IMG/VR virus record: IMGVR_UViG_2778261418_000019 | Coordinates: 1 to 22,248 of that record | DNA length: 22,248 nt | Strand: one strand, 5' to 3' | Origin: a virus | Lineage: Duplodnaviria > Heunggongvirae > Uroviricota > Caudoviricetes | Part shown: one piece after another, positions 11,600 to 15,853 of the stretch | Layout of the letters: every line of letters begins with the position of its first letter | How positions within the stretch are numbered: position 1 is the stretch's first letter | The notes under the pieces: model-generated | Database searches by the model: none | What the model was told of the DNA's origin: nothing | What the model saw: only the letters and a program-made list of their open reading frames with translations | Translations under genes and position numbers: made by a program

Positions 11600-14500
11600 A
11601 TGGCAAACCAGATTATTACGGGCGGTGGATTTAAACTATATTTTAATAACGACACCGCAAACCGTATCCCCGATAACGCAGGAAATGAACAAGTAAACGA
11701 ATTGGCAGCAATGCCTACATTTGGTGTAGATAGTCAAGTACAAACTATTGAAGTATATGACAGTGGATTTTCCGAAAAACTATTATCCGAAAAAACGGCG
11801 TCGAATATTCCAATTACCGTAAACTATGTAGCAGATTGTACGGCCCATAAATTTTTGGATGAAATGACAGAATCACAAGAAGAATTCCAACTTACTCTAC
11901 AGTACGATGTAACTGATGGTCTAATTTCTTATAGTATGGTTAATGGTGCTATATCTTCTTATTCTCTAAATGGTGATAAAGATTCGGTAGTTACCAAAAC
12001 ATATAACTTTGTGCCTACCGAAGTAATTGCAACTAACGCAATTGCCCCACTAAGCGAAAACTTAGTAGTAGGATCTTATGGTGTTGGTGCTAATGGTAAT
12101 GATGTGCCTCAGTACGAACCACTTACCCCCGAAGGTAATAGCTTTATTAAAGTACCTGCATCACAGCTAGGAAACCCAGCCAGTGCGGATATGATGGGTG
12201 TAGGTCTTATTGATGGTAATTCGTTTAGTTCCATTGCAATGACTAAATCCGGTACATTGGCAATCTATGCAAAGAACCAGAATACAGCATGGACGCGTAT
12301 ACTTACTGCAACCCAGATTAGTGATCAGTATGTACCACTTACCCGTACTATTAACGGTAGAGCACTAAGTACAAATATCTCAATTACTAAAGGTGATGTA
12401 GGACTAAGTAATGTAACCAATGATGCACAATTGAAAATTGCAAGTAACCTTAGTGATCTAGCAGATAACTCAATTGCCCGTACTAACTTAGGTTTAAGCC
12501 GTTTCCAACAATACGCTAACCCCGTTGGCGAAACTCGCGTAGTATCCGGCGATGGTAATATGCGTTTATTTGTTAAGAATGATGGCACCTGGGGGGTGTG
12601 GAACGGCACAGCCAACGCATCACAACCCCTACCAATTCTACAGGGTGGAACAGGGGCAAGTACAGCAGAACAGGCGAGAACAAACTTAGGTATTCTTTCT
12701 TCTTCCGAAGTTAGTAACCTATATGTACCAAAAACTACTACTATTAATGGTAAAGCACTTACAGGTAATATATCAATTACTAAAGGTGATGTAGGACTAA
12801 GTAATGTAACCAATGATGCACAATTGAAAATTGCAAGTAATCTAAGTGATGTTGCAGACGTTACTACTTCTAGAAATAATATTAAAGCACCTACGGTTGG
12901 CGGTGGTCAAATAATTGCAGTTCCAGCACCTCCGGGAGTGGAAGCAGACAAATACTATCCAGTAATTATCGATCTATCCTATGATAATATTTCTTCTACT
13001 GGTGCACATATCGATCTATATACTAAATCGTCTTCTGGTGGTGATCCGATGAACTCCGCACAGTTTAACGGTTTTGTTCGTGCTGGTGGATGGACAGATC
13101 GCGGTGATGCTGGATATGGTTACTATAACTGCTATGCACCAAGTGAAAAAGCACTTAACTGTATTCTTGTTAGTGCGAAGGTTGCAGAAGATAAGATGGC
13201 AGTATACGTAGAAGGCCGAGCGTTTCCAGTACGTATGAGGATTCCAGCATTCTGTACTGCATTTGCACCAACGGCAACATATACCGCAGGATCTGATGTA
13301 GTTTACCCGTGGGGCGTAGCTGATCCAATGAGTACCGCAGTTGCAAACGGAACGCGTGCATTATTCGATTTTAGACAAGCACGTCCTGGCTTTTATATGT
13401 CCAATAGTTCTACTACTACACCTAACTATTATATCGGTGGTGGTGGTCGTGCTGTACTATCAAATGGTATGAATATCGGAGAAAACCTAACAATTACGGC
13501 TCCTAAATTAACATTTAGTGGTAATATTGAAGCGGGTAATGGTTTTATTGCTTCCGGTACTGGTGTAAATGATTTTACCTTTGTATCAAAACAATTAAAT
13601 GCAGATTTATCTACTAAATCACAATCAGAATTTAGAACGAGCGACGGGGCAATTCAATTAGTATGGCGTGGCGTTACTTCAAGTGATACTACTCAATTCT
13701 TTAACTTTAATAGTGATGGTACATTTAGCTCACCAAATGGATTTTTATCTTCAACTGGTCAGGACTGGAACGGTCAAACATCCATTGTTAACCGTAGTAG
13801 ATTTTTAGCTGGTAGTGTAAACGGTCCAGACGGTACTAATGTCTATGGCGGTACTCATACTGGCTTTAGTGGTAATTATGGTTTTCAGATTGTAGGAAGA
13901 CAGAATAAAGCATTCTTCCGTACTATCGAAGCTGGTACTAATGGAACATGGAATCAGATACCAACTCTGAATCTAGCTAATACATGGGCCGGTACTCAAT
14001 CATTTACTGGTAATCTATCAATCACTGGTAAAGTAACATCACCAATTACAATTGAAGGTGGATCACCTGCATTTATTCTCAATCAAACGGGAACTGGTGC
14101 TACAAAATATTCACTAATTGGAACGGATGGAAATATTACCTTATCTAAAAATGATACATTTGATGTAATTAAATATACATCTAGTACCGATACACTTAGT
14201 ACAGCAGCAGCAAATACTACATTAAAAAATCTATCTGTTACGGGTAATCTATCCAGTACGGGTACATTAACAACTACGGGTAGTTTGAACGCCCAATCAT
14301 TGACTACAACAGGTATTGTAAATGCTGGATCAGTAACTACTACTGGTAGTGTAAATGCTGATACTATTGTAGCAACAGGAAGTATTGATTCTTCTTCATT
14401 GACTACAACTGGTAGTGTAACTTCTGGATCATTATCTACCGGTACTGTTACGGCAAGTGGTGATATTATTTCTTCTAGTAAGATTGTTACACAGGCTAAC

Positions 14501-15334
14501 TATCCGGGACTTTATCTAATATCTAACCGCGTAGGTGACGGTACTATAGGTAAGCGTGTATATTTTGAAAATAATGGTGAAGATGGACTCTATCTTTTTA
14601 TGGATGGTCATACGTCAACAACCAACCGTAAAACTATACGTTTTGCTAAACCAGAGGCTAATACAGTGATGTATGTTGGCTATAACGGAGGACTAGCACC
14701 AAACGGTAACAGTACAGACGGTGGTTCGGGTAATGATTTTAACATTCAGTATCAAGGATGGAAAAATACTGGCGGTGTTATGTCTAACGCCCCAACGTCG
14801 GGTAGTGTTTACGGCTCTCTATTCACTCAATGTACGCAGGGTCTAGATGCTGGTCCTAGTGCTGCAACTGGTGTATCTGGTCAATGGTATCAACAACGTT
14901 TTTATGATACATCAAACCGTATATTCTCACGTATCCAGACTAACAACAGCTCATGGAGTGCATGGAATCAGATCACTATGTCAGCAGTATCTGACCAGTC
15001 CGTAAAAACTATTCAGGGTGATTTAGATACTAAGGTAGCTCTATCAAATATCAATAGAATGGAATTTAAGAATTTTACATTTAATGATACTCCTGAAAAA
15101 GCTCGACGTGGTGTAATCAGCCAACAGATTATGACTATTGATCCACAGTACGTTAATAAAATTGGTGAATTGTATCATCTAGATCAAACTCCAATGCTAT
15201 TAGATGGACTCGCGGCAATTCAAGAACTATCTAAAGAGAATAACTCACTAAAAGCACAACTAGCAGACCAACAGCTACAGCTTGATGAACTACGTGCTGT
15301 AGTAACTCAATTACTAATTGCACAGAATAAATAA
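11600..15334 (+). CDS. tail-tube-domain / long fibre fusion protein with a C-terminal S74 intramolecular chaperone (1244 aa)
   Basis: Residues 1-143 are paralogous to the 152-aa major tail protein at 15395-15853. The middle carries fibre motifs ([59 protein letters not shown]). The C-terminus SDQSVK...[15 protein letters not shown]...coiled coil matches the peptidase S74 chaperone pattern. Confidence 0.85.
   Translation: [1244 protein letters not shown]
12326..12496 (+). repeat. fibre repeat copy 1 (57 aa)
   Basis: [57 protein letters not shown]. Bases 12380-12447 are identical to 12773-12840. Confidence 0.9.
12719..12889 (+). repeat. fibre repeat copy 2 (57 aa), offset 393 nt from copy 1
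   Basis: [57 protein letters not shown]. It holds the other copy of the 68-nt perfect match. Confidence 0.9.
14221..14470 (+). repeat. about six tandem degenerate ~11-residue repeats ([11 protein letters not shown] type) within the fibre
   Basis: [11 protein letters not shown] / [11 protein letters not shown] / [12 protein letters not shown] / [10 protein letters not shown] / [12 protein letters not shown] / [11 protein letters not shown]. Confidence 0.7.
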
Positions 15335-15341
15335 ATAAACG

Positions 15342-15364
15342 GTAGGGAAAAGGACTTTCCCTAC
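15342..15364 (+). terminator. 9-bp stem-loop after the fibre-fusion gene (no U-tract)
   Basis: GTAGGGAAA (15342-15350), loop AGGAC, TTTCCCTAC (15356-15364). Confidence 0.35.
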
Positions 15365-15394
15365 TAATCCAACTTATATAAGGAAATAAAAAAT

Positions 15395-15853
15395 ATGGCT
15401 ATGTCTATTATGACTGGTGCTAACCTAAAAGTAGAGTTAGGCACTTATACCGCTGGTAGCTCTACCGCTGCCGCAGATTTTCAAGAAATCCCAGAAGTGG
15501 CAGCATTCGCTACTAGTGGTTTTGAATCTACTGTTATTGATGTTGTTACTTACAACTCTGCTTATAATCGCAAGCTACTAGGAACAAAATCCGTGCCTGA
15601 TTGTGAACTAACTGTTAACTATCTAGCAGATAACGCAGTACACCAAAAGTTAGAACAACTTGCAGATGATCAGGTACGTACTCAGGTTAAAATCACCTAC
15701 TACGAAAACGCAACCCGTACAACTGGCTTCTTCGTAATCTACAATGCTTTCGTATCTTCAAACTTGATCGCAGGTAGTAAAGACGAAGTAGTGACTAAGG
15801 CATTTACACTAGCTGTAGATGGTGGTCCAATCCAATCCGGTATTAATGCTTAA
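15395..15853 (+). CDS. major tail (tube) protein (152 aa)
   Basis: Strong AAGGAA RBS. It lies directly upstream of the G/GT chaperones and tape measure, has a typical size, and is followed by triple stops and a strong terminator. Confidence 0.8.
   Translation: [152 protein letters not shown]

Follow-up and report, generated by a model that had tools for sequence, protein, structure and literature searches.

In the phages T5 and DT57C, a duplicate of the tail tube protein (TTP), named p140 or TTMP, forms a ring around which twelve p132/LtfC subunits clamp the N-termini of nine fibre chains (PMC10038345; PMC10713586). The purpose of this duplicate is to hold the lateral tail fibres (LTFs) (PMC10038345; PMC10713586). 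According to the T5 authors, neither p140 nor p132 occurs outside T5-like phages, and another mode of LTF anchoring must operate in lambdoid phages (PMC10038345). Tube proteins can also be decorated directly, and in lambda gpV (Ig domain), T5 pb6 (Ig domain) and SPP1 gp17.1* (FN3 domain) an extra module is placed on the C-terminus of the tube domain and points outward (PMC8718954). Here, a gene from a stretch of viral DNA of 22,248 nucleotides (positions 1 to 22,248 of the Caudoviricetes record IMGVR_UViG_2778261418_000019, referred to as the window) is compared with these systems. The gene occupies positions 11600-15334 on the + strand, as do all features described below, and its product of 1244 aa is interpreted with moderate confidence as a virion tail component in which a diverged TTP duplicate is joined covalently, via a flexible linker, to a lateral tail fibre.

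A first-pass annotation of the window had described this open reading frame (ORF) and the adjacent ORF of 152 aa (15395-15853) and had proposed that residues 1-143 of the former align colinearly with the latter. Both ORFs are as described, and pairwise BLASTP of residues 1-209 of the fusion protein with the 152-aa protein yielded 44/139 identities (32%) with 2 gapped positions (E 2e-20). The alignment runs colinearly from Met1 in both proteins and includes all three segments that had been quoted in the annotation, whose by-eye count of 11 of 30 identities was correct. The 152-aa protein is the true TTP, as it scores above threshold for Phage_tail_3 (PF08813; 28.1 bits vs the cut-off of 24.2). 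PHROG 158 ('major tail protein') was matched by both proteins (E 1e-18 and 4e-21), the match in the N-domain of the fusion protein covering residues 1-143 (11600-12028; E 1.2e-18). Pfam gave no match in the N-domain or in the adjoining adapter domain even at E 10, a sequence search of the PDB with the N-domain profile returned nothing useful and NCBIfam did not match any of nine window proteins. The N-domain has gone unnoticed because neither Pfam nor NCBIfam recognises it; annotation consequently misses the anchor domain, and the proteins are just named 'tail fiber domain-containing'. An AlphaFold2 monomer model of residues 1-240, built with 23 aligned family members, predicted three parts: residues 12-150 form a beta-sandwich with one helix, residues 154-168 a disordered linker and residues 181-236 a small all-beta domain. 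The predicted sandwich is bent, has one flanking helix and carries a long beta2-beta3 loop. The structural comparison with tube folds that had been proposed for this domain thus ended in a predicted tube fold, in a model of moderate confidence.

When N-domains and their cognate TTPs (13 of each) were placed in a neighbour-joining tree, the two groups separated in 90 of 100 bootstraps (the long-branch distance of the sequence from Escherichia phage DCP80 lies beyond the range of the Kimura formula, and its placement is unreliable). Mean identities amounted to 40.6% among N-domains, 53.9% among TTPs and 26.9% between N-domains and TTPs. The separation fits one old duplication that was followed by specialisation. 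Judged by its sequence, the fusion protein is a TTP paralog and not the major repeating tail subunit, because a 152-aa TTP that passes the Pfam threshold adjoins it in every locus and because the N-domains form a distinct clade. The window was further compared with prophage L002 of E. coli WGI31CT, which is 92% identical to it, measures approximately 32 kb (7222-39637), lies in yegD and encodes a large serine recombinase. While the terminator (98%), the TTP (92%) and the distal tail protein (Dit; 97%) are nearly the same in both, the N-domains share only 74% identity, which indicates that the anchor domain itself was exchanged along with the fibre DNA. The use of these per-gene identities as a discriminator for the position of the ring was rejected, as they show only that the N-domain can be swapped.

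These data bear on the possibility that the paralog is mixed rarely into many rings, in the manner of SPP1 gp17.1*, and that fibres stand along the whole tail. The N-domain keeps all tube elements in colinear order with the TTP, which speaks for such co-polymerisation, and minority decorated tube subunits are a known principle in SPP1 and lambda (PMC8718954). Yet the separate and faster-evolving N-domain clade points to a specialised interface and not to an interchangeable one, and the N-domain was swapped while TTP, terminator and Dit stayed 92-98% identical. Trimeric fibres, moreover, require three adjacent subunits, and the paralog without a fibre that is found in Yersinia (see below) would be purposeless as a sporadic subunit. 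Sporadic incorporation is considered improbable.

In the fusion protein the N-domain is followed by a linker (aa 144-168; 12029-12103), which is predicted to be disordered, with a predicted local distance difference test (pLDDT) score <50 for residues 154-168. Next to it lies an all-beta 'adapter' domain (aa ~169-240; 12104-12319), whose strands were modelled by AlphaFold2 at residues 181-236 and whose conservation starts near G158. Over 10 loci this adapter (aa ~158-240, from 12070) is the best-conserved stretch of any virion protein, with 66-81% identity compared to 53-70% for the TTP, 40-50% for the N-domain and 27-36% for the terminator. A motif of 47 residues that starts with YVPxTxTINGxAL was read from the sequence twice (aa 244-290, 12329-12469, and aa 374-420, 12719-12859). 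The central fibre module (aa 421-794; 12860-13981) is common to coliphage LTFs; it shares 49% identity (E 7e-112) with residues 598-962 of the LTF of the T5-like phage JLBYU43 and matches PHROG 6578 (E 1e-128). Residues 147-370 are weakly similar to residues 206-445 of the T5-like LTF. From approximately residue 147 onwards, the fibre part matched 718 phage records, which include the LTFs of T5-like, Seuratvirus and Nonagvirus coliphages, and none of these 718 records covers residues 1-146. A repetitive shaft rich in Thr, Ser and Gly (aa 795-960; 13982-14479; read from the sequence) leads to a distal domain (aa 961-1130; 14480-14989), which is delimited by its position before the S74 cleavage site and has matches to the tail-fibre C-terminal families PHROG 1980 and 6921. 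This domain is the putative receptor-binding end of the mature fibre.

The protein ends with an S74 intramolecular chaperone (aa 1131-1185) and a C-terminal coiled-coil tail (aa 1186-1244; together 14990-15331). Peptidase_S74 (PF13884) was detected with 27.4 bits vs the cut-off of 22, with profile positions 1-57 aligned to residues 1131-1185. From the first profile position onward, a candidate Ser1131/Lys1136 dyad (SDQSVK) can be read in the sequence, and these two residues would be the catalytic ones by analogy with endoNF. By analogy with the family, cleavage is expected near Ser1131. A sequence search of the PDB with the fibre body returned nothing useful. The earlier proposal that a separate gene adds a fibre of approximately 1,100 aa ending in an S74 chaperone is supported by the PF13884, PHROG and LTF matches.

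The fusion is widespread. A search of 5.8 billion proteins identified 761 homologues, and in all of the best 120 the tube-like domain is present at residues 1-150 (40-93% identity). These 120 sequences originate from Escherichia, Shigella, Enterobacter, Klebsiella, Citrobacter, Salmonella, Erwinia, Kosakonia, Pluralibacter, Phytobacter, Scandinavium and Buttiauxella, and further members were found in Leclercia, Rouxiella, Edwardsiella, Atlantibacter, Serratia, Kluyvera and Yersinia. Of all homologues, P0001 is the closest, with 97% identity along the full length. When 1.84 billion cluster representatives were searched exhaustively with HMMER, only 170 relatives were returned, among them approximately 120 long proteins (342-1563 aa) with the profile at the N-terminus (the fusion clusters, counted at 50% identity) and approximately 15 ordinary tube proteins. 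An assembly or annotation artefact was rejected on the basis of the number and spread of the homologues. The C-terminal ends of the fusion proteins vary and include S74, Phage_tail_C_2 and T4 gp36-like ends, whereas residues 1-240 are constant; as far as sequence can tell, such a combination is typical of a virion anchor whose receptor-binding ends can be exchanged. The contigs of several homologues stand alone at 33-35 kb and might each be the complete genome of a phage. On one contig of 33.6 kb from Logan (L016), the tube gene beside the fusion gene is apparently disrupted and only an ORF of 57 aa is called (12818-13600); decay or an assembly error are both possible.

The gene order is equally constant. 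In 15 of 15 longer loci examined, the genes for terminator, fusion protein, TTP, chaperones and tape measure protein (TMP) follow one another, and in the 14 loci that reach further and have a called-gene table they are succeeded by the genes for Dit, hub, DUF6950 protein and J. Dit thus keeps its position in 14 of the 15 loci whose sequence extends that far; in the fifteenth, DCP80, only a Dit match of 38% identity was found further downstream, in a stretch without a called-gene table. In a more distant lineage no paralog is present, and the TTP gene comes straight after the gene at the terminator position. In L019 (884-1760), a distant TTP relative is directly preceded at this position by a gene of 126 aa, with neither paralog nor fusion, and this 126-aa gene has no detectable similarity to the terminators of the fusion-bearing family.

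Prophages of Y. enterocolitica, Y. kristensenii and Y. aleksiciae (132 contigs) carry an intact paralog of the N-domain type that comprises 153 aa, ends in the linker and lacks a fibre. It is located between terminator and TTP (8001-8462 in L020/L021) in a tail operon that otherwise looks complete and contains a full J. The retention of this fibre-less paralog suggests that the tube-like domain has a structural role of its own, and it can be likened in this respect to the undecorated p140 ring of T5. Other loci have short fusion proteins that precede a second fibre gene. In L013/L014 (11681-14590; Escherichia sp. ESNIH1 and Pseudescherichia vulneris), a fusion protein of 561 aa is followed by approximately 2.9 kb of further coding sequence before the TTP, as in DCP80. 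The combination of a short fusion with extra coding sequence suggests two-component or branched fibres.

DCP80 (PQ671644.1; L001/L015) is the only deposited phage record that contains the module. This record of 141 kb is classified as a T4-like Gaprivervirus, and over its first ~25 kb it consists of a siphophage structural module that belongs to the fusion family, with a tube-paralog fibre of 698 aa, an extra fibre gene of 745 aa and a TTP. Beyond ~25 kb, and as far as it was examined (to 60 kb), the record is T4-like, with motA, rIIA twice and gp44. As a chimera of the module with T4-like DNA, it was dropped as a cultured example. No match was obtained when the region was compared by megablast with 50,697 phage records.

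The J-like gene at the end of the window bears on the part that the fibre may play in host recognition. The first-pass annotation had described the J-like protein as short, without a receptor-binding end, and had made the fibre the main host-recognition device. As called, the J-like ORF extends over 20458-22248, and its stop codon lies inside an IS2 element. The N-terminal 583 aa of this central tip fibre (20458-22207), which include a Phage-tail_3 domain, are interrupted by IS2 exactly where the match to L002 ends, at 22207. The last 41 bases of the window (22208-22248; TGGATTTGCCCCTATATTTCCAGACA...) are the terminal inverted repeat of IS2, with thousands of IS2/IS3-family matches in E. coli genomes. 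In L002, J is a protein of 1100 aa with FN3 and C-terminal Phage_Tail_Tip domains, and other intact relatives encode J proteins of 1067-1147 aa with the same domains. The short J is thus an artefact of the insertion at 22208 and of the window end, and there is therefore no ground for letting the fibre take over receptor binding from J. The ends of the fibre vary greatly, as would be expected of a host-range determinant; against this stand the full J of the fibre-less Yersinia lineage and the homology of the fibre to LTFs that serve as accessory adhesins. A role as the main device is accordingly very doubtful, and the fibre is probably an accessory lateral fibre and not the main receptor binder.

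The insertion raises the further possibility that the gene is a non-functional relic, a fossil fusion in defective prophages that is not assembled into particles. Besides the IS2 in J, the window has a split TMP, whose two ORFs lie in different frames (16600-16992, 130 aa, and 17039-18808, 589 aa), whereas the TMP of L002 is a single ORF of 732 aa. The closest relative, L024, has the same TMP split and also a split J; since the TMP split is common to both, it was inherited and is not a read error. In addition, the gene is carried by only 2 of 5,426 complete E. coli genomes. Opposed to these signs of decay are intact ORFs in approximately 120 clusters from many genera with conserved synteny and domain boundaries, the modular exchange of fibre ends, which implies selection on function, and the stand-alone contigs that have the size of a whole prophage. 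A relic is, on this balance, highly improbable.

The window as a whole represents the late operon of a lambda-like siphophage, an E. coli prophage. Its 5' part encodes a gpA-type large terminase, a lambda-family portal, a protease/major-capsid fusion and an FII-like connector. The connector is followed by a gene of 130 aa, the 1244-aa ORF, the 152-aa tube protein and two small chaperone-like genes, and then by the tape measure, a Dit-like protein, a hub protein, a DUF6950 protein and the J-like gene. The earlier assignment of the fusion gene to the neck or terminator slot did not hold, as the gpU-like tail terminator (130 aa; 11192-11584) lies directly upstream and is itself preceded by the FII-like connector. 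The terminator starts with the ATG at 11192, and a GTG at 11135 was dropped as its start; a sequence search of the PDB with the 149-aa translation of the longer ORF (11135-11584) gave nothing useful. Dit (gpM-like, 184 aa) is encoded at 18876-19430 and has a weak match to the pb9 B-domain. It is the candidate partner of the paralog ring if that ring is distal. Because terminator and Dit each exist as a gene of their own, both identities were rejected for the fusion gene, which is not the only terminator candidate at its position and lies upstream of the TTP.

Between the fusion stop codon and the ribosome-binding site of the tube gene, a stem-loop with a 10-bp stem is located at 15342-15364. 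A GC-rich stem was found at the same place in 9 other loci (L002, L003, L005, L007-L011 and L017). The stem sequences differ among loci yet still pair (covariation), and no U-tract follows. The ribosome-binding site of the tube gene downstream of the stem-loop is conserved (CTTATA(T)AAGGAAATAAAA-ATG). The hairpin may set the fibre-to-tube ratio, either as an element of mRNA processing or stability or as a partial attenuator, and its conservation is compatible with a low ratio of fibre to tube expression.

How such a protein might be built into a tail can be outlined. The C-terminal S74 chaperone would trimerise the fibre and then cleave itself off near Ser1131. The three N-domains of one trimer would enter a tube ring as neighbouring protomers, for which the linker of approximately 25 residues should be long enough to let them sit side by side. 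A hexameric ring would in this way carry two fibres, which would project from the outer surface, at the site at which tube proteins normally expose their C-termini. The fusion proteins would form a dedicated single ring and would not serve as a general building block of the tube. In host recognition, the fibre would make a reversible first contact with a surface glycan and the J-like tip fibre would commit to receptor binding. A specialised fibre-bearing ring with two trimers per hexamer is the most reasonable reading that we infer from these data.

The position of this ring is proposed tentatively, at a little under even confidence, as the first ring on the distal tail protein, where p140 is found in T5. 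This placement is favoured, by analogy and with the same reserve, by the function of the homologous LTFs, by the precedents of T5 p140 and T4 gp54/gp48 and by a simple assembly rule, in which the pre-trimerised tube domain would nucleate on the initiator. Alternatively, the paralog may be the last, head-proximal ring under the terminator, from which the fibres would hang as neck (collar) fibres, in the way of whiskers or of a neck passage structure. Lactococcal siphophages do have carbohydrate-binding structures on the neck, and the fusion gene stands between the terminator and tube genes in every locus. In siphophages the order of the genes tends to follow the physical order of their products, an argument that the T5 authors applied to p140 (PMC10038345). 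A tandem duplication, however, would also leave the fusion gene beside the tube gene, and a proximal ring needs a rule that keeps growing tubes from being capped too early. T5 p140 and T4 gp54/gp48, the known extra tube-fold rings, are distal. Furthermore, the tail is probably longer than a fibre of ~1,000 aa: the 732-aa TMP of L002 presumably implies a tail of ~110 nm (an estimate), and such fibres measure ~50-60 nm. Neck fibres are thus rather unlikely. The N-domain and TTP clades share their N-terminus and their beta2-beta3 region. The use of this conservation to discriminate between a distal and a proximal ring was rejected, since both placements predict it.

Several points weigh against the proposed fibre-bearing distal ring. 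The gene order terminator, fusion, tube argues by colinearity for a proximal over a distal ring. All structural statements rest on an AlphaFold2 model with only moderate confidence (pLDDT 74). Incorporation, copy number and ring position of the fusion protein are all matters that we infer. The fibre-less Yersinia form could simply be a decaying remnant. No cultured phage with the tube-paralog/fibre module is known among the phage records searched, and the prophage of the window is itself probably not viable, given the IS2 in J and the split TMP.

The fixing of LTFs in siphophages other than T5 is an acknowledged gap, and the strain used for the lambda structure lacked the fibres; the fusion family offers a simple and genetically compact answer. 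The first-pass annotation knew of no earlier case of this architecture, a view that stands in part. Searches of the open-access full-text literature found no description of a tube-domain/fibre fusion (which is absence of evidence and not proof), but the T5 system of p140, p132 and pb1 is a close functional analogue (PMC10038345). The fusion appears to be a way, so far undescribed, of fixing fibres directly in the phage tail tube, with the tube-fold ring as a fibre anchor already known from T5. We consider it evenly balanced whether lambda-like phages possess here an undescribed mode of fibre anchoring in its full form, in which a TTP paralog would be an obligatory unique ring that is kept even without a fibre (as in Yersinia), the lateral fibres would be part of the same polypeptide, the linker would resolve the symmetry mismatch of six to two times three and a whole fibre or its tip could be swapped without a separate adaptor. 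As a single chain of tube anchor and fibre, the protein could be a handy scaffold for retargeting the host range of siphophages or F-type tailocins.

The T5 system is the closest analogue, as in both cases there is a tube-protein paralog distinct from the TTP, which here would likewise anchor a fibre. The ring, the collar (p132) and the fibre (pb1) are separate proteins in T5, whereas anchor and fibre are one polypeptide here. For p132/LtfC, tblastn of the JLBYU43 homologue against the window and the whole L002 prophage gave a best E of 0.3, and no such family appeared in the Pfam and PHROG scans. An N-terminal lasso of the pb1 type was likewise missing from the window and from the whole of L002; the first 205 residues of the T5-like LTF find nothing in the window, and the similarity begins at LTF residue 206. 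T5 p140 has a double tube domain and forms a trimer, while the single domain described here is expected to form a hexamer, which predicts two fibres and not three as in T5. The paralog shares 32% identity with its own TTP here, compared to 9% in T5, and its gene is located between the terminator and tube genes and not among the baseplate genes as in T5. With lambda gpV, T5 pb6 and SPP1 gp17.1* the fusion protein has in common that an extra module lies C-terminal of a tube-fold domain. In those proteins, approximately 100 aa are added to the major tube protein or its frameshift product and are repeated along the tail, whereas here a separate, diverged paralog bears a fibre of approximately 1,100 aa with its own folding chaperone. 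Among the 50 best tube-fold matches in BFVD, 46 are shorter than 330 aa and the longest has 651 aa. T4 gp54/gp48, evolved Dit proteins with carbohydrate-binding modules and Nocturne116 DTP1/DTP2 are likewise tube-fold paralogs that form unique rings at the junction of tube and tip, some of them with adhesion modules. The fibre part resembles endosialidase, T5 pb1 and the LTFs of Seuratvirus and Nonagvirus in its PF13884 domain above threshold, the SDxxxK motif at the start of this domain and the homologous LTF body. Known S74 fibres are attached to a separate protein by short N-terminal adaptor segments, whereas the fibre described here has a tube domain of its own built in.

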